Below are positions 2,107-15,730 of a stretch of 32,170 bases of DNA, piece by piece. Numbering within the stretch: the first letter of the stretch is position 1; every line of letters begins with the position of its first letter. The translations under genes were made by a program, and so were the position numbers. A model generated the notes under the pieces. The model did no database searches. It saw nothing but the letters and a program-made list of their open reading frames with translations, and was not told the origin of the DNA. The DNA comes from Acetobacteraceae bacterium. GTDB taxonomy: Bacteria > Pseudomonadota > Alphaproteobacteria > Acetobacterales > Acetobacteraceae. The stretch is taken from assembly GCA_027330745.1 (NCBI GenBank), contig DAHWDR010000257.1, positions 1 to 32,170 of the forward strand. Reading direction: 5' to 3'.

Positions 2107-3308
2107 GCAGGATCCTTCGGCGCGAAGCGCGACGGCGCGAATGGCGCCATCTCCGGCGCGATCCTACCCGACAGGATGTGATCGGCAACCAGCGTCGCGG
2201 TGATCGGCGTCAGCAGGATGCCATTGCGATGATGCCCGGTGGCATAGACCAGGCCGGGCAGCGTGCCCGGACCCAACAGCGGCGCGTCGTCGCGTGAGCC
2301 GGGGCGGAATCCGACCCAGGTTTCGGCGATGGGCAGGTCCTCGATCCCCGGCAGCGCGCGCCAGGCGCCGTCCAGCAGGGACAGCAGGCCACCGGCGGTC
2401 AGGTGCGGGTCGAACCCTTTTTCCTCCACCGTGGCGCCCACGATCAGGCGGCCATCGGCGCGCGGCACCAGATAGGCGTGCGGCGCCCAGACCACATGGC
2501 GCAGCAGTGGCGCCGCCGGGTCCATCGACAGGGCCAGCATCTGGCCTTTGACCGGGCGCACCGGCGGGCGGGCGGCTTGCGGCATCCCGGGGAGTTCGGC
2601 CGACCAGGCGCCCGCCGCCAGGACCACCGTCTCCGCCTTCACGCACGCCTCACCCGCGATCACGCCGGTGACGCGCCCGCCGGTCAGGTCGAGCCCGGTC
2701 ACCGCGCAGTGTTCCCGCAGGACCCCTCCGGCTTCGCGCAAGGCGGCGGCCAGCGCCGCGCCCAGCAGGCGGTTGTCGGCCTGATGATCGGCGGCGCTGA
2801 ACACCGCGCCGGCCAGCGAGGGCGTCAACCGCGGCTCCCGCGCCAGGGCCTGGCGCGGCGTCAGCCATTCCAGCGGAATGCCGTGGTCGCGCTGGAATTC
2901 AAAGGTGAAGCGCAGGCTGGCCAGGTCGTCGCGATTCAGGGCCAGCATCAGCGTGCCCTCCTGGCGCAGCCCGACTGGCAGGCCGGAGGCGGTCTCCAAC
3001 GCGGCGGCGAAGTCCGGCCACAGCGCCAGGCTGGCGCGGTTGAGCGCGGACAGCGCGGCTTCCCCGGGCTCGGTTTCCACCCCCGCGGCCAGCATCCCGG
3101 CGGCGGCCCAGGACGCGCCGCGCCCGGCCTGGCCGCGTTCGAAGACGGTCACCGGAACGCCGCGCTGCGCGAGGCGCCAGGCGATGGCAAGGCCGATAAC
3201 GCCGCCGCCGATGACGGCAACGGAGGAGGGGGAGGGCGGAATGGCGGGCCTCGCGACGCAACGCGCCGAGATTACCCCGGCCGCCGGCGCGGGGGAACCG
3301 GCCGTCAG
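2103..3308 (-). CDS. thiO: glycine oxidase ThiO (FAD-dependent); the 5' boundary is uncertain (CTG 3308 or ATT 3242)
   Basis: The sequence VAVIGGGVIGLAIAWRLAQRG (Rossmann GxGxxG, from about 3221) through ATGHHRNGILLTPITA is ThiO-like. I found no in-frame ATG/GTG/TTG from the Rossmann motif back to at least 3600, checking codon by codon. The 573-aa ORF in the track overlaps lpxC and is rejected. Confidence 0.85.
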
Positions 3309-4234
3309 GCGGCGGCGGAAACCGGCATGGCCTGTGCGGCGAACAGCGCGTGCAGCAGACGGTTGTTCAGGGCATGGCCGGAGCGGTGTGCCACGAACCG
3401 GCCACGGATCGGCGCGCCCGCCAGCGCCAGATCGCCCACCGCATCCAGCAGCTTGTGGCGCGCGAACTCGCGGTCCATGCGCAACCCGCCCGGGTTCAGC
3501 ACGCGCGCGCCATCCACTACCACCGCGTTCGCCAGGCTGCCGCCCAGCGCCAGGCCGGCGGCCTGCAAGGCGGCGACATCCTCGGCCATGGCGAAGGTGC
3601 GCGCGGCGGCCAGTTCGCGGCGGAACGATGCCGGGGTCAGCCGAACCTCCAGGCTTTGGCGGCCGATCGCGGCCGCGGGAAAATCGATCGAAAGCCGCAT
3701 CTCCAGCCCCTCGGCGCGCGGCGCGGGGCGGAGTTCGGCCCAGGCGTCCCCGTCTTCGACCCGGACCACCTGGCGTGGCACGAGGAAGCGGCGCGGTGCG
3801 TCCTGCGCGGCAATTCCCGCGCATTCGATCAGGAACACGAACGGAGCCGCCGAACCATCCAGGATCGGCACTTCCGGCCCGTCCAGGCTGATCAGCGCGT
3901 TGTCAATGCCAAGCCCCGACAGCGCGGCCAGCAGATGCTCCACCGTGCTCACGCGGATATCGGGCTCGCCCGGCAGGGCGAGGGTGGTGGCCAGCCGCGC
4001 GTCGGCGACGTAATCGAAGCGGGCCGGGATGTCGCGCCCCAGATCGGTGCGGCGGAAAACGATGCCGCGCCCGGCTGGCGCCGGGGCCAGGGTCAGCGCG
4101 ACGGTGGACCCGGAATGGACCCCGGTGCCGACGCAGCCGATCGCGGTCTTCAGGCTGTGCTGACGCGCCTCGGCCGGCACCTCGATCAGGCGCGGGGGGG
4201 GCAGCGTGTCGGTGGCGATGGCCAAGGCGTCCAT
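3305..4234 (-). CDS. lpxC: UDP-3-O-acyl-N-acetylglucosamine deacetylase
   Basis: 309-aa ORF with GVGVHSG-like (GTGVHSGS), TVEHLLAAL, PILDGSA, and HKLLD.VGDL.L.G motifs. It sits directly after ftsZ, as in other dcw clusters. A GGGA Shine-Dalgarno-like motif lies 6-7 nt upstream of the ATG. Confidence 0.95.
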   Translation of the reverse strand: MDALAIATDTLPPPRLIEVPAEARQHSLKTAIGCVGTGVHSGSTVALTLAPAPAGRGIVFRRTDLGRDIPARFDYVADARLATTLALPGEPDIRVSTVEHLLAALSGLGIDNALISLDGPEVPILDGSAAPFVFLIECAGIAAQDAPRRFLVPRQVVRVEDGDAWAELRPAPRAEGLEMRLSIDFPAAAIGRQSLEVRLTPASFRRELAAARTFAMAEDVAALQAAGLALGGSLANAVVVDGARVLNPGGLRMDREFARHKLLDAVGDLALAGAPIRGRFVAHRSGHALNNRLLHALFAAQAMPVSAAA

Positions 4235-4342: not shown

Positions 4343-5941
4343 TTACCGGGTAACTGATTGACCGGGATGGGTTTTTTCTGCCTCTCCGGTGTAGGATTGC
4401 TGGCGCCGGAGGAAGGTCGGGATTTCGAGTCCCTCATCCTCCCCCACCACCGGACGCACCTCCGGGCGGTCCATCGGGTGTCCACCCGTGTGCCCACCTG
4501 CGTGCCCAGCGGGGCGGCCGACGGGGCGTACCGTGTCCGACGGGTCCTCGGCATAGACACCAAGGCCGGGTTCGTGGCGCGGCTCGGTTGGCGGGGCGGC
4601 CACCCCGCTTCCGCCGCGGCGCGAGAAAATGCCCGTCACGGTGCCGAAGATGCTGGTGCGTTCCGGCTGCGTCGGCCGTGCCGGCGCGGCGCGCGGGCGG
4701 GCCGGGGCCGAGGGGATGAAGCCCGGCCGCGGCGCCTCCGTGGTCTCGGCCCGGCCCAGGGAGGGTGCAACGGCGGATGACGCGATCGGCGGTACCGACG
4801 GACGCAGCGGTGCGGCGTGACCCGGGGCGGCTTCGGCGACCGGTGCGGCGGACATGTCCACCGCCGTCAGAACGGGCCCCGCGGCGCGCCCGGTGGCCGG
4901 TGGCAGATCCTGCGCCACGCCGCCATTCACCGCGACCAGTTTTGGCCGGTCCTGGCTGCTCGCGAGCGGCACGTCGATGCCGGTCGCAATCACCGAGACG
5001 CGGATTCGCCCCGTCAGGCTGGGGTCGGTGGCGGAGCCGAAGATGATCTCGGCGTCCGGGTCCACTTCCTGGGCGACGCGCTTAGCGGCGTGCTCGACCT
5101 CGAACAAGGTCAGATCGTCGCCGCCGGTGATGTTGATCAGCAAGCCCCGCGCGCCGGCCATGGAGGTGTCTTCCAGCAGCGGGTTGTTGATCGCCGCCTC
5201 GGCCGCCAGCACCGCGCGATTATCGCCCTCGGCGGTGCCGGTGCCCATCATCGCCTTGCCCATCTCGCGCATCACGGTGCGGATGTCGGCGAAATCCAGG
5301 TTGATCTGCCCCGGCGCCATCATCAGGTCGGTGACGCTACGGACGCCTTCGTACAGCACCTGGTCGGCCATTTTGAAGGCCTCCTTCCAGGTGGTACGGT
5401 CATTTGCCATACGGAACAGATTCTGGTTCGGGATGATGATCAGGGTATCGACGTGTTCCTGCAGCTCGGCGATGCCTTCCTCGGCGGCGCGGGCGCGGCG
5501 GCGGCCCTCGAAATCGAACGGCTTGGTGACGACGCCGATGGTCAGGATGCCGCGCTCGCGCGCCATCCGCGCGATCACCGGGGCGGCCCCGGTGCCGGTG
5601 CCGCCGCCCATGCCGGCGGTGACGAACACCATGTGGCTGCCGTCCAGATGGCGGTACAATTCGTCGGCCGCTTCCTCGGCCGCGGCGCGCCCCACCTCGG
5701 GCCGGGCGCCGGCGCCGAGGCCCTGGGTGATATGCGGGCCGAGCTGGATCCGCCGCGTGGCACGGGAATGGATCAGCTGCTGCGCGTCCGTGTTCGCCAC
5801 CACGAACTCGACGCCCTGCAGGTCGGCGGCGATCATGTTATCGACGGCGTTGGTGCCGCCGCCGCCGACGCCGATCACCGAGATGCGCGGGGTGAAATCC
5901 GTGTGCACCGGCTGATCGGTCTTTTTCATGTGCAGAACCAT
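4343..5941 (-). CDS. ftsZ: cell division GTPase FtsZ
   Basis: Contains [10 protein letters not shown], the tubulin signature [11 protein letters not shown], a long Pro/Ala-rich linker and the conserved C-terminal peptide [11 protein letters not shown] chose the ATG at 5941 because GGAGGGG lies 9 nt upstream. An ATG at 5929 is the alternative. The upstream part of ORF 4343..6067 runs into the palindromic element. Confidence 0.95.
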
Positions 5942-6007
5942 AGCAGGCGACCCCTCCGTCGATTCGTTGACTTGAACGCCATGCCCGCGATTCGGGGCAA
6001 GCGGCTT

Positions 6008-6156
6008 GTTGGCTAGGTAGTGTCTCGGTTTGAACGTCGGCGCCGGCCCGCACCCCCACCCGGCCACCCAACGTCAGTATATTGGCATTGGGTGGCCGGG
6101 TGGGGGTGCGGGCCGGCGCCGACTTGCTGTTCAAACCGAGACACTACCGTTGGCTT
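6008..6156. mobile_element. MITE-like non-autonomous palindromic element (133 bp, 6016..6148) flanked by a GTTGGCT direct duplication
   Basis: The left arm (6016..6071, 56 nt) is the perfect reverse complement of the right arm (6088..6148) except for a 5-nt insertion (TTGCT) in the right arm. The loop is 16 nt and AT-rich (cgtcagtatattggca). GTTGGCT occurs at 6008..6014 and 6149..6155, next to both ends. No coding capacity. Confidence 0.6.
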
Positions 6157-6158
6157 TG

Positions 6159-7460
6159 TCACAGTCGTTCCTTCACGAACGCCACCACGCGGGCGAGCCA
6201 GCCCCCGCGCGGCAACGGGTCGAGATCGATATCCGCGAGCCGCCGTCCGTTGCCGGCCGCCCAGGACAGCAGCCCCGCGGCGGTGGCGAAGGCGGGCCCG
6301 GCAGCGGCATCGGGCAGTCCGCGCAGGCTGGACGGCCGGCCGATCCGCACCTGCTTGCCGAGAATCTCGGCCGCCAGTTCGCGCACCCCGCCGAGTTGGC
6401 AGGCGCCCCCGGTCAACACGACCCGGTTGCCCGCGGCGCGCGTCAGGCCGGAGCTTTCCAGACGTTGCTTTACCAGCTCGAACGTCTCCTCCATGCGCGG
6501 GCGGATCACGCGCACCAGGTCGCTGCGCGGCACGCGCGCCAAATGATGGTCTTCCTCGCCGATCAGCGGCACCGGCAGCATCTCGTGATGATCGTCCGGG
6601 CAGCCGGAGGCGTTGCCGAACAGCGCCTTCAACCGTTCCGCGTGCGCCACCGGCGTGGACAGTAGCCGCGCCAGATCGTTGGTGACATGCACTCCGCCGA
6701 TCGGCAGCTGCGCGGTGTGCAGCAGCTGACCCTCGGCGAACACCGCCATCCCGGTGGTGCCGCCGCCCATGTCGATCACGGTGGCTCCCAGTTCGCGCTC
6801 GTCCTCCACCAGCACGGCAAGCCCCGCGGCCATCGGCGCGGAGACCAGCTCGGCCACGTCCAGATCGCAGCGCGCCATGCACGCGCCGAGCGAACGCAGC
6901 GCCCCCGACGCCGCATCGATGATGTGCAGCCGCGCCGTCAGGGTGGAGCAGAACAGACCGCGCGGATCGGCGACCCCTTCGGTCTCATCGGCCGAGAAGG
7001 TCAGAGGCAGGGCGTGGATCGTCTCGCGCCCCTCGCCTTCGGCGCGGGCGCGGCCTTCGGACATGATGCGGCGGATATCCGCCTCCTCCACCGCGCGACC
7101 GCCGACATGCCACTGCACATTCAGCAGCCGGCTTTCCGGCTGACCGCAGCTTAGATTCACGGTCACGCTGCGCAGCCGCGTATCGGCCATGTCCTCGGCC
7201 TGGCCGACCGCGGCGCGGATCGCGCGCTCGGCCTCGTCCAGATCGACGATGCCGCCGCCGCGCACGCCCTTGCCGCGATGCCAGCCGAAACCGGTGGCGC
7301 GCAGCCGGCCGTCGGCTTCCTGCCGGCCGATCAGGCAGACCACCTTGGTGGTGCCGATATCCAGGATTCCGATCGGGCCGGAGCGTCCACCGCGTCCGCG
7401 CGGGGCGTCCTCCGCACCGGGTTCCTGCGCCACCAGCAGGCGCGGGGCCATCTGGTTCAT
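6159..7460 (-). CDS. ftsA: cell division protein FtsA (actin-like ATPase)
   Basis: Contains ILDIGTTKVVCLIG, VIDMGGGTT, VLTGGACQLGGVRELA and a C-terminal amphipathic helix. The ATG at 7460 overlaps the ftsQ stop (ATGA). The upstream part of the 679-aa ORF overlaps ftsQ and is rejected. Confidence 0.95.
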   Translation of the reverse strand: MNQMAPRLLVAQEPGAEDAPRGRGGRSGPIGILDIGTTKVVCLIGRQEADGRLRATGFGWHRGKGVRGGGIVDLDEAERAIRAAVGQAEDMADTRLRSVTVNLSCGQPESRLLNVQWHVGGRAVEEADIRRIMSEGRARAEGEGRETIHALPLTFSADETEGVADPRGLFCSTLTARLHIIDAASGALRSLGACMARCDLDVAELVSAPMAAGLAVLVEDERELGATVIDMGGGTTGMAVFAEGQLLHTAQLPIGGVHVTNDLARLLSTPVAHAERLKALFGNASGCPDDHHEMLPVPLIGEEDHHLARVPRSDLVRVIRPRMEETFELVKQRLESSGLTRAAGNRVVLTGGACQLGGVRELAAEILGKQVRIGRPSSLRGLPDAAAGPAFATAAGLLSWAAGNGRRLADIDLDPLPRGGWLARVVAFVKERL

Positions 7461-11905: not shown

Positions 11906-13116
11906 GGCACGCTCTCCCCGGCGCCGACGCGCAGCACCAGGTCGGCCAGGCGCTCGGCCGCGTCGGCGCGCGACAGGGCGAACGCGGCGGCGGCGGCGCG
12001 GGTGCGGCGGTCGGGATCGGACAGCCACGCGGTCAACGCGCGCGACAGCGCAAGCGCGTCCAGCCCGGCCTGATCCAGACGCTCGGCTGCGCCGGCCGCG
12101 ACCAGCGGGATGGTGTTGGCGCGCTGGTGGTCGTCGATCGCGCCCGGCAACGGAACCAGCAGCGACGGGCGCCCGACCGTGGCGATCTCGGCGATGGTCG
12201 AGGCGCCGGCGCGCGCCACCACCAGCTGCGTATTCGCCAGAAGCGCGCCGATATCGGCGAAGAACGGTGCCAGGGTCGCGCGCACGCCGGCTGCGTCATA
12301 GGCGGCGCGCACCCGGTCGAGATCCTCGGCGCGGCATTGCTGGGTCACCGCGAGGCGCGCCCGCAGCGGCGCCGCCAGCAGTGCCACCGCTGCCGGCACC
12401 AGGTCCGCGAACACCCGCGCCCCCAGCGATCCGCCCAGCACCAGCAGCGACAGCGGCGGGCCGGGGACGTAGCGCGCGCCGGCATGAGCCAGGATTCCGG
12501 CGCGCACCGGATTGCCGGTCACGACGACGGCAACCTGCGCCGGCACCAGGGCGGTATCGGCGAAGCTCAGTGCCAGACAGGCGGCGCGACGGACCAGCAG
12601 GCGGTTCGCCCGCCCCAGCACCGCGTTCTGTTCGTGCAACACCACCCTGGGACGCGGGCGCGAGAGGAACGCGCCGAGCGCCGGCGCCACCGACGGGTAG
12701 CCGCCGAATCCCACCACCGCCTGCGCGTCGAGGCCGCGCAGCAGGCCGCGCGCGCGCCAGCCGCCCCAGGTCAGCGCGCAGGCAGCCGCGACGCCACGCC
12801 GCAGGCCGCGTCCGGCGATCCCGGCACCGGGGAGCACATGCACATCCAGCCCGGCGAAGGCGGCGCTGGCCGCCGCCCGCGTATCGGTCATCAGCACCAC
12901 CGGTTCGCCGCGCGCGGCCAGCGCGGCGGCCAGCGCCTCGGCCGGGAACAGATGCCCGCCGGTCCCGCCGGCGGCGATCACCACCGGCCTGCCGCAGCTT
13001 CGCGCCTGCGGTTGCGGAAGCCGGCGCGGGCGCGGACCGCGCGCGCCGAAATCCGATGCCTGCGCGCCCGCCAGCGGCGGGGAGAAGCGTTCGGCCATGA
13101 CGGTGGGGCCGCTCAT
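11902..13116 (-). CDS. murG: undecaprenyldiphospho-muramoylpentapeptide beta-N-acetylglucosaminyltransferase MurG
   Basis: Contains [26 protein letters not shown], and the ...[11 protein letters not shown]...G.P..LVP motif. The ATG at 13116 overlaps the ftsW stop (ATGA), and the 44 codons before the G-loop have coding-like GC3. The alternative GTG at 12984/12981 would give a canonical protein of about 360 aa. Confidence 0.9.
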
Positions 13117-14234: not shown

Positions 14235-15730
14235 GCGGTCTCCGTCTGCGGCAGGGCGCCAGCGAGGGCGGCGAAGCGCACACCGCGCGCCTCGAACCCC
14301 GCGAACTGGTCGAAGCTGGCGCAGGCGGGCGAGAGCAGCACCACCGGCGCGGCCTGCGCGCGGGCGGCGGCGAGGGCGGCCGGAACCGCCGCCTCCAGCG
14401 TGTCCACCACGCGATGCGCGACGCCGGCGCCCGCAAGGGTTTCGGCCAGCACCGGGCCGTCGCGGCCGATCAGGAACGCCGCTTCGATGCGCGGGAAGAA
14501 CGGGGCGAGTGCTGCGATCCCGCCCGCCTTGGCGATGCCGCCGGCGATCCAGATCAGGCGCGGGTAGCAGGCCAGCGCGCGCGCCGCGGCATCGGCGTTG
14601 GTGGCCTTGCTGTCGTCGATGAAGCGCACGGCGCCGATCCGCGCGACCTCGCGCTGGCGGTGCGGCAGGCCGGGGAAGCGCATGATCGCGCGCGCCACCG
14701 CGGCGCGGTCGGCACCGAGGTGCAGCGCAATCGCGCAGGCGGCCGCGGCGTTCTGCGCGTTATGCGTGCCGGGCAAGGAAAATGCGTCGTTCAGGTCCAG
14801 CACCGGTCCCACCGCGTCGCGCAGCACCGAGCCAATGGCGGAGACGTCGGCCGCGCCCTCACCCGAGACCGTGACCAGCCGCGCCGGGCCGCCACGCAGC
14901 CCATCGGCCATGGCGCGGGAGGGAGCGTCGTCGATCCCGATCACCGCCAGGTCGGCGGATGTTTGGCGCGCGAACACCTGGCGCTTGGCCGCGGCATAGC
15001 CCGCCATGTCGCCGTGTCGGTCCAGATGGTCGGGCGAGAGATTCAGCATCGCCGCGACAGCGAAGCGCATGGTTTCGAGTCGCTCCAACATGTAGCTCGA
15101 CATTTCCAGGACATAGACGCCGCCATCTGCCAGCAGCGGCAGCGACAGCGCCGCCGGCCCCAGATTGCCGCCGGCGGCGCAGGCGATCCCGGTCTCGGTC
15201 AGGATATGGGCGAGCAGCGCGGTGGTGGTGGATTTGCCGTTGGTCCCGGTGATGCCGACGAAGCGGGTGGCGGATCCGGCGGCGCGCACGGCACGGAACA
15301 GCAGCTCGGCATCCGACAGGATCGGCACGCCGGCGGCGATCGCGCGCGCAGCGGCCGGATGCGGCGCGGGCAGACCATGCGGGATGCCGGGGGACAGGAT
15401 CAGGGCGTCCAGCGGCGCATCCCATGCGGCGGGATCGACCACGGCGACCCGCCCCCGCTTTGCGGGGGGAGAAGGCTGGGGTGAGGGGGGACGCGCGGGC
15501 GGGACGCCGCCCCGGCAAAAGGAGTCGGGGGCCGCTTCTCCTCCCTCACCCCAGCCCTCTCCCCCCGCGAAGCGCGGGGAGAGGGAACTGCGCCGCGCGG
15601 GATCATCGTCCCAGGCCAGCACGTCGGCGCCCATCGCCGCCAGCGCGGCGACCGCGGCGGCGCCGTTGCGCCCCAGTCCCAGCACCGCGAAGCGGCGTCC
15701 CGCGAACAGATCCCGGGGGAAGCCGCTCAT
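14231..15730 (-). CDS. murD: UDP-N-acetylmuramoylalanine--D-glutamate ligase MurD, carrying an in-frame repeat-derived insertion
   Basis: Contains [28 protein letters not shown] and DDSKATN. The ATG at 15730 overlaps the mraY stop (ATGA). At 499 aa it is about 45-55 aa longer than typical MurD because of the insertion at 15437..15596. Confidence 0.93.
15452..15583. repeat. composite palindromic repeat element lying inside the murD reading frame
   Basis: The left arm is CCCCGCTTTGCGGGGGGAGAAGGCTGGGGTGAGG (15453..15486). The right arm's reverse complement is CCCCGCGCTTCGCGGGGGGAGAGGGCTGGGGTGAGG (15544..15579). The arms are about 31/34 identical with a 2-nt indel and are separated by about 57 nt. 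Each arm carries its own small hairpin (CCCCGC-TTT-GCGGGG; CTCTCCCC..GCG-AAG-CGC-GGGGAGAG). Confidence 0.6.

Follow-up and report, generated by a model that had tools for sequence, protein, structure and literature searches.

Results

The ftsA-ftsZ spacer holds a long inverted repeat

The window, by which we mean the whole 32,170-nt stretch of DNA analyzed, encodes ftsA and ftsZ on its minus strand (Table 1). The stop codon of ftsA occupies 6161-6159; ftsZ starts at 5941, behind a Shine-Dalgarno sequence, GGAGGGG, and this start is supported by gene calls in relatives. Between the two genes lies a spacer of 217 nt (5942-6158). It contains an inverted repeat of 133 nt, at 6016-6148, in which each arm is 56 nt long, a single bulge measures 5 nt and the loop, CGTCAGTATATTGGCA, 16 nt; these dimensions, proposed in the earlier note, were confirmed by reading the sequence and with a repeat finder. 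The repeat finder divides the arms into an outer pair of 20 nt and an inner pair (6036-6071/6088-6123), both fully complementary, with the bulge interrupting the right arm. In 100 shuffled versions of the window, neither arm half arose by chance.

The repeat has no coding capacity, and a single stem-loop fills the whole unit. Its predicted fold as minus-strand RNA has a free energy of -138.8 kcal/mol (z = -15.6 against shuffled controls), and as single-stranded DNA of -83.8 kcal/mol (z = -17.4 against shuffled controls). Repeat searches and a covariance model found no second copy of the palindrome, its arms or its core within the 32-kb window. At gathering thresholds Rfam had no match in the whole window, and at permissive thresholds only generic long-hairpin microRNA models appeared, far under their own thresholds.

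Scans found no promoter-like site in or beside the hairpin, and a consensus scan of the ftsZ leader (5942-6007) found no sigma-70-like promoter. Some blocks of this 66-nt leader do not vary even among relatives whose FtsA is 84% identical, and these blocks may be a promoter or regulatory site for ftsZ. In the dcw gene cluster ARAGORN also predicted a candidate tRNA-Ala (GGC) at window 12649-12723 on the minus strand, possibly a false positive.

Table 1. Features of the ftsA-ftsZ junction (window positions) and of related sites (positions in the loci named).
Feature	Position	Strand	Remarks
ftsZ, downstream neighbour	4343..5941	-	From the ORF list and sequence; the relatives' downstream gene has Tubulin and FtsZ_C domains
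Native ftsZ leader, untouched by the insertion	5942..6007	-	Blocks invariant in the relatives' alignment: CTTGCCCCGAATCGCGG, TTCAA, GAGGG
Target-site duplication, ftsZ side	6008..6015		GTTGGCTA on the + strand; directly abuts the element
Terminal inverted repeat, first copy	6016..6035		GGTAGTGTCTCGGTTTGAAC; ends of the form GGnnnTG; 100% complementary to 6129-6148
GC-rich hairpin core	6036..6123		34-36-bp stem; covariance model 97 bits; covarying pairs
Hairpin loop	6072..6087		Minus strand resembles the family loop consensus ..AGRATAC..CGT
Bulge TTGCT, 5 nt	6124..6128		Separates the core from the right terminal repeat
Terminal inverted repeat, second copy	6129..6148		Repeat finder
Target-site duplication, ftsA side	6149..6156		GTTGGCTT; 7/8 bases the same as 6008-6015
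ftsA, upstream neighbour	6159..7460	-	433 aa; from the translation; homologues are named FtsA and have FtsA Pfam domains
Nested unit of ~34 nt	L012 ~3025-3065; L032 ~4010-4050; L093 ~2690-2730		Same position in the core arm
Roseospira mosaic sites	L116 4930-5005; L055 3095-3135
lptB-rpoN junctions	L048 5814-5922; L278 1475-1615; L279 1484-1487; L280 1478-1576; L281 1475-1651

The inverted repeat was inserted with duplication of its target

We compared the spacer with the ftsA loci of six relatives. The closest (L123) is 97% identical in FtsA and, over 3.3 kb, 92.6-94.9% identical at the nucleotide level; the other five (L124-L128) are more distant, with 84% FtsA identity. All six have a spacer of 76 nt, against 217 nt here, and in none of their dcw loci did the hairpin-core covariance model find a copy. 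Read along the gene strand, the window has TGACAAAGCCAAC, then the 133 nt, then TAGCCAACAAGCC, where the closest relative has TGACGAAGCCAATAAGG. The empty site in this relative has a single AAGCCAAT (gene strand), its spacer is exactly 141 nt shorter, and BLAST breakpoints against it fall at window 6014/6150. The palindrome of 133 nt and a duplicated 8-mer therefore account for the 141 extra nt, and the palindrome is an insertion that postdates the split from this relative of about 93-95% identity. The empty spacer itself has an unremarkable predicted structure (z = 0.02).

The earlier note had read the unit as a MITE-type insertion flanked by a 7-bp target duplication, GTTGGCT, and had held that the same palindrome in all relatives, lacking a duplicated GTTGGCT and with no other copy in the genome, would speak against mobility. 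The insertion stands: the six related loci lack the palindrome, the orthologous spacer of the closest one has the 8-mer once, and the termini are shared with an IS1-family group that duplicates 8 bp. The duplication is also real, with its length corrected. GTTGGCT occurs at 6008-6014 and 6149-6155, and one base longer the copies are GTTGGCTA and GTTGGCTT, an 8-bp duplication with one mismatch. The distance from the ftsA stop codon is 3 nt to the start of the duplication and 10 nt to that of the element proper. Since the leader at 5942-6007 is conserved and the element lies outside it, the insertion struck the short variable stretch that follows the ftsA stop.

The termini belong to a group of IS1-like transposons

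A BLAST search of a plasmid collection matched the outer 20 nt to Neorhizobium galegae, in which two inverted copies of the terminus lie 885 bp apart around a SAM-dependent methyltransferase gene, with (G/C)AGCGCTG as flanks. Scanning metagenomes with GGTAGTGTCTCRGTTTGAA yielded at least 120 contigs with the terminus GGTAGTGTCTC(A/G)GTTTGAA. We examined 41 inverted terminus pairs, 40 from other loci (the matches listed above and the Acidiphilium plasmid locus) and the window's own; they span 69 bp to 3.9 kb. Target duplications of IS1 elements are typically 8-9 bp. Flanking direct repeats of 8 bp were perfect in 23 of the 41 pairs and had one mismatch in five, the window's among them.

The long members of the group (2.5-3.9 kb; for example L146, L202, L165, L201, L223 and L253) encode a protein of about 300 amino acids. 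These proteins score 27.1 and 24.8 bits against Pfam DDE_Tnp_IS1 (cut-off 24.1). Their best NCBIfam match is transpos_IS1, with 72.8 bits (E = 3e-20) and 66.9 bits, under the 100-bit equivalog cut-off. Judged by these scores, the parent transposases are distant relatives of IS1. Homologues of the transposase are encoded in 26 of the terminus loci among the matches listed, and plasmid homologues in Acidiphilium multivorum (Acetobacteraceae), Hoeflea and Mesorhizobium are labeled "IS1 family transposase" by the RefSeq/NCBI pipeline. The A. multivorum plasmid element (NZ_CP041717.1, transposase at about 247.6-248.5 kb) has both termini and the duplication AAGCCGAG. Passenger genes are frequent in the group, which is abundant in environmental samples, and code for a PemK toxin, a P63C-domain protein, Fic/DOC, an alpha/beta hydrolase and a SAM methyltransferase. 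Ends of the form GGnnnTG are a stated feature of the IS1 family (PMC6807381), and the window element reads GGTAGTG at both ends. By its termini, then, it is classed as a miniature, transposase-less member of this IS1-like group.

No IS1-type transposase was found by tblastn in the 32-kb window or near the hairpin core at the 120 listed core loci. Conversely, none of 135 termini in the listed metagenome contigs had a core within 200 nt, and the full-length IS1-like elements searched, the Acidiphilium copy included, gave no core match with the covariance model. An IS1-family element of Sphingomonas (H17) had no recognisable termini in the stretch examined.

Three copies that combine the termini with the core were found: the window's and two in another Acetobacteraceae genome, a complete one in a metagenome-assembled genome (L115) and one ended by the edge of its contig (L035). 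In L115 the termini, core and bulge are those of the window copy and the 8-bp duplication, GCCGACAA, is perfect; thus the composite transposed as a unit. L115 is one of at least six cores in the Acetobacteraceae assembly "clean1792". Because CTTGCT or CTGCTT stands at the matching place in both other copies, the bulge was inherited and is no mutation of the window copy. The perfect arms, which the earlier note took to suggest either recent insertion or selection on the structure, are compatible with a recent insertion, but the bulge is one that other copies of the subfamily have too.

Two further observations concern the group at large. Among the matches listed, the terminus GGTAGTGTCTCAGTTTGAA is almost invariant across very different environments and GC contents (L133-L252, L129, L253). 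Miniature derivatives of 69-800 bp are numerous in the group, and their hairpin interiors are unrelated.

The hairpin core is a separate, dispersed family

In the plasmid collection, BLAST matched the inner 84-88 nt to two sphingomonad plasmids, with changes on both arms. Scanning one genome per species with CCGGCCCNCNCCCCCACCCGGCCNCCC gave at least 120 stretches. Among the matches listed most are from Sphingomonadales; the others come from Acetobacteraceae, Roseomonas, Roseospira, Tistlia, Kiloniellales and unclassified alphaproteobacterial assemblies. Several genomes contain the core more than once, and it is also present in 23 IMG/VR viral contigs.

An alignment and covariance model were built from 83 copies from other genomes. 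They have a 34-bp stem in which most pairs (about 25 of 32-34) are nearly invariant. At a few positions the pair switches on both sides, as in one that is GC in 54 copies, AU in 15 and UA in 12. Overall 93% of cells are paired, and double-change cells number 131, against 49.7 +/- 5.5 in shuffles (0/500); the count is also far higher than for structures slid by one to three columns. A loop motif, AGRATAC, is conserved and asymmetric. Applied to the window, the model finds one copy, at 97 bits, with the next match at 16 bits.

Across genomes the core is better conserved than the outer arms. About one third of the copies have outer arms like the IS1-type terminus (..AGAG.C.GTTTGRAAA) and others have none. 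Around core copies generally, perfect 8-bp duplications are rare, in only marginal excess (8 copies, against a null of 3.9 +/- 1.9). The motif that flanks the core in sphingomonads was considered as an independent repeat and rejected, as in the plasmid collection it always occurs together with the core and never without it. The literature and libraries searched contain no description of the core or terminus sequence, nor of such repeats in these taxa. Within that scope, both sequence families, the IS1-like transposon group and the hairpin core, are apparently undescribed.

For a large share of the core matches, the end of the contig is only a few bases away (for example L018, L031, L034, L036, L041, L052, L069 and L100; L003-L122), and the repeat appears often to break short-read assemblies. 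Three genomes have a hairpin unit of about 34 nt, TAGCCCCRCAAAGTANTACTTTGYGGGGACCCCG, nested in the core arm after GGGTGGGGG and flanked by repeated TGGGGG (Table 1). The unit could be either a nested insertion or the mark of a core subfamily that spread after gaining it.

Gene context of the core and mosaic sites

Core copies are intergenic, usually 10-60 nt from stop codons, and they occupy differing loci in different genomes. With the strands of adjacent genes called by a local codon-position GC test, 22 contexts are convergent, 41 tandem and 11 divergent. The orientation of the loop relative to transcription is random (22 versus 18). Mismatches comprise 15 G:U and 29 A:C, with no excess of G:U on the sense strand. 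Because the loop orientation is random and G:U pairs are not enriched, there is no sign of a conserved strand-specific RNA, and strand-specific RNA selection on the core was rejected on these grounds. An all-against-all BLAST of ORFs found no recurring neighbor gene family within 3 kb of about 90 core copies. A partner gene was likewise rejected, as only generic families were seen (ABC ATPases, epimerases, histidine kinases and short-chain dehydrogenases).

The sequences outside the core differ between clades. Those of sphingomonads contribute, at both exits, small hairpins with runs of T behind them. In Roseospira (L055, L063, L116) the core is bracketed by two other conserved hairpins, whose ends are of the ATACCAGCGG type. 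One Roseospira site has both flanking hairpins and no core, and one of the flanking hairpins also occurs alone, 3' of a tRNA gene. The Roseospira arrangement reads as a mosaic of palindromic units.

A second filled and empty pair was seen in Sphingomonas. In S. guangdongensis a spacer of 109 nt separates lptB from rpoN and contains the core, with ATGA on both sides. The spacer is 4 nt in a close relative, and three other relatives have three different palindromic repeats there. At this site too, therefore, the core is mobile, though perhaps by another enzyme. In close Sphingomonas genomes the lptB-rpoN junction ranges from 4 to 177 nt and four genomes hold four palindromic repeat families; given such varied palindromes, the junction is therefore a hot spot for insertion of hairpin elements. 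With its ATGA repeats S. guangdongensis retains the stop codon of lptB as well as the start codon of rpoN.

Discussion

A probable non-autonomous element with IS1-type termini

We favor the view, at a probability of roughly 85%, that the palindrome is a non-autonomous MITE in which 20-bp terminal repeats of the IS1 group enclose an 88-nt, non-coding, GC-rich hairpin. The element has several defining features of a MITE. It is small and non-coding, has terminal repeats, is flanked by a target duplication matched by an empty site, and shares its termini with autonomous elements that encode a transposase. Its mobilization in trans, by a transposase encoded elsewhere, is what we infer. An IS1-type DDE transposase from elsewhere would have cut and pasted the element into the 8-mer AAGCCAA(C/T), which begins 3 nt 3' of the ftsA stop codon, and repair of the staggered cuts would have duplicated the 8-bp target. 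The event would date from after the divergence from the relative of about 93-95% nucleotide identity.

Several points speak against this reading. The duplication has one mismatch, only three composite copies were found, none of the 135 listed termini has the core nearby, and no such transposase lies in the window or near the 120 listed core loci. The transposase matches stay under the NCBIfam equivalog cut-off. The pattern of conservation, with the core ahead of the outer arms, is opposite to that expected of a simple MITE. One Sphingomonas core copy checked against an empty site has flanks of 4 bp (ATGA), not 8 bp.

The nearest parallels among known elements are the MITEs and mobile insertion cassettes derived from IS1. 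Like the window element, they are short and non-coding, with 20-bp GGnnnTG repeats, an 8-bp duplication and the termini of an IS1-type transposase, and in both cases sister elements hold passenger genes between identical termini. Unlike in the IS1-derived MITEs, the parent transposases here are distant, and the interior is a hairpin also found with other flanks, with no remnant of the parent.

An insertion in an essential operon

If the palindrome is such an element, an odd structure in an essential operon is explained as a recent and apparently tolerated transposon insertion. The element is dispensable at ftsA-ftsZ because the relatives lack it. It was probably tolerated through having landed in a short non-conserved stretch of the spacer, sparing the 66-nt ftsZ leader. 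RNA read through from ftsA to ftsZ would now have a perfect stem of 56 bp. The earlier note proposed an attenuator, a processing site or a 3' stabiliser as candidate roles. We rejected a canonical intrinsic terminator, as a scan found no terminator-like site at the element and no run of U comes directly after the hairpin, which is followed on the gene strand by UAGCCAACAAGCC. By analogy with other MITEs, the stem would more likely be a target for a double-strand-specific RNase or a barrier to a 3' exonuclease than a terminator.

The analogy is with the Correia elements of Neisseria and the ERIC elements of enterobacteria, intergenic palindromes of about 100-200 bp that are co-transcribed with their neighbors (PMC10969869). 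RNase III cuts the RNA hairpins of Correia elements, and ERIC hairpins expose RNase E sites (PMC10969869). As hairpin-forming intergenic MITEs like the window element, they are the best model for how the ftsA-ftsZ copy might act. They differ from it in sequence, host range and perhaps the family of the parent transposase. The target duplication of Correia elements is TA, compared with 8 bp in the window. A further resemblance is to SPRITE of Streptococcus pneumoniae, a mobile terminator-like repeat that gathers at gene ends (PMC10969869). The sphingomonad versions of the core, with their small hairpins and T runs, are similar to it; the window copy differs in having no T run, and the organisms and sequences are unrelated.

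The filled and empty loci, at about 93-95% nucleotide identity, are material for testing the effect of a 56-bp stem on the coupling of ftsA and ftsZ. Both families should be useful in annotation as a source of spurious ORFs and contig breaks, and they are possible markers of recent genome change.

Is the core a functional module?

The conservation of the core admits another reading, compatible with a transposon and adding function to it. The core may be a functional module carried on different mobile outer sequences: a bidirectional transcription barrier or insulator, an RNA-stabilizing 3' hairpin, or a protein-binding site. At this locus it would uncouple or tune ftsQA relative to ftsZ. We judge it less likely than not. 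It would account for about 25 of 32-34 pairs being nearly invariant across alphaproteobacterial orders while the outer arms differ, for the variable pairs changing on both sides, and for the conserved AGRATAC loop. The position of copies 10-60 nt from stop codons, with few divergent contexts (11, against 22 convergent and 41 tandem), would suit it too, as would the outer hairpins and T runs at both exits in sphingomonads. So would the persistence of the core where outer arms have decayed and duplications are mostly undetectable. Yet the loop is randomly oriented with no sense-strand G:U excess, and the copies have no common locus across genomes and no recurring neighbor family. The window copy has no U run, and its relatives manage without it at ftsA-ftsZ. 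Moreover, template switching keeps the arms of a palindrome complementary, and copies that are kin can covary without selection.

Somewhat more doubtful is a stronger form, in which the 84-nt core is an apparently undescribed element that spreads horizontally among alphaproteobacteria under purifying selection on its sequence, has been captured repeatedly by unrelated mobile outer sequences and persists through its function, for instance as a two-way barrier to transcription or RNA decay or as a hairpin bound by a specific protein. The captors would be IS1-type termini in the Acetobacteraceae, whereas sphingomonads and Roseospira would use other termini. We regard it as similarly speculative that the core is a self-propagating or functional hairpin module. 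Were a functional captured core the right description, the ftsA-ftsZ copy would be a natural experiment in which ftsQA expression is uncoupled from that of ftsZ.

Tyrosine transposases, native regulation and artefact

Much less probable is a REP/REPIN-type element moved as single-stranded DNA by a REP-associated tyrosine transposase instead of a DDE transposase. REP, BIME and REPIN sequences, and the intergenic mosaic elements of rhizobia, are likewise dispersed, GC-rich extragenic palindromes, often 3' of genes and sometimes in mosaics. The unit here is extragenic, GC-rich, dispersed and multi-copy, and neighboring sites in these genomes are mosaics of several palindromic units. The outer arm reads GTAG at positions 2-5, and GTAG heads typify many REPs, a REP or REPIN being an imperfect palindrome of 20-40 nt with a GTAG or CGTC head (PMC3733652). 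The present unit, in contrast, is 84-133 nt, its core of 84 nt has a 34-bp stem, and the arm itself is no small palindrome. Insertion by a tyrosine transposase (the IS200/IS605 mechanism) gives no target duplication. The window copy has a clean 8-bp duplication with an empty site, and transposon termini identical to those of elements with an IS1-type DDE transposase. No tyrosine transposase lies beside the core copies examined, and no gene recurs beside them (within 3 kb, about 90 copies).

A native regulatory structure, vertically conserved in the dcw operon, would fit an operon in which ftsZ dosage is critical and a fold of such extreme predicted stability, but it is scarcely credible. It is refuted by the empty sites, as the structure is missing from the spacer of six related loci, one of them about 93-95% identical and none with a covariance-model hit, and the core occurs at unrelated loci elsewhere. 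Just as implausible is an assembly or amplification artefact, a chimeric inverted duplication suggested by the perfect arms and the many family members at contig ends: the sequence is no inverted copy of local DNA, the unit is foreign with defined termini and a duplicated target, and independent copies are present in isolate genomes, plasmids and other metagenome-assembled genomes.

A second palindrome, inside murD

The window has another GC-rich palindrome, at 15452-15578, in frame within murD (15730-14231, minus strand). Its 47-nt arms are 85% complementary and its predicted fold has a free energy of -122 kcal/mol (z = -6.6). In the protein it accounts for about 44 extra residues, which lie after the N-terminal GLG motif and before the SPGIP motif. 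The insert is present in a 99%-identical homologue and absent from the next closest MurDs (455-456 aa), and other MurDs of Acetobacteraceae and Rhodospirillales have inserts of differing length at the same point. As an in-frame palindromic insertion it resembles the Rickettsia palindromic elements.
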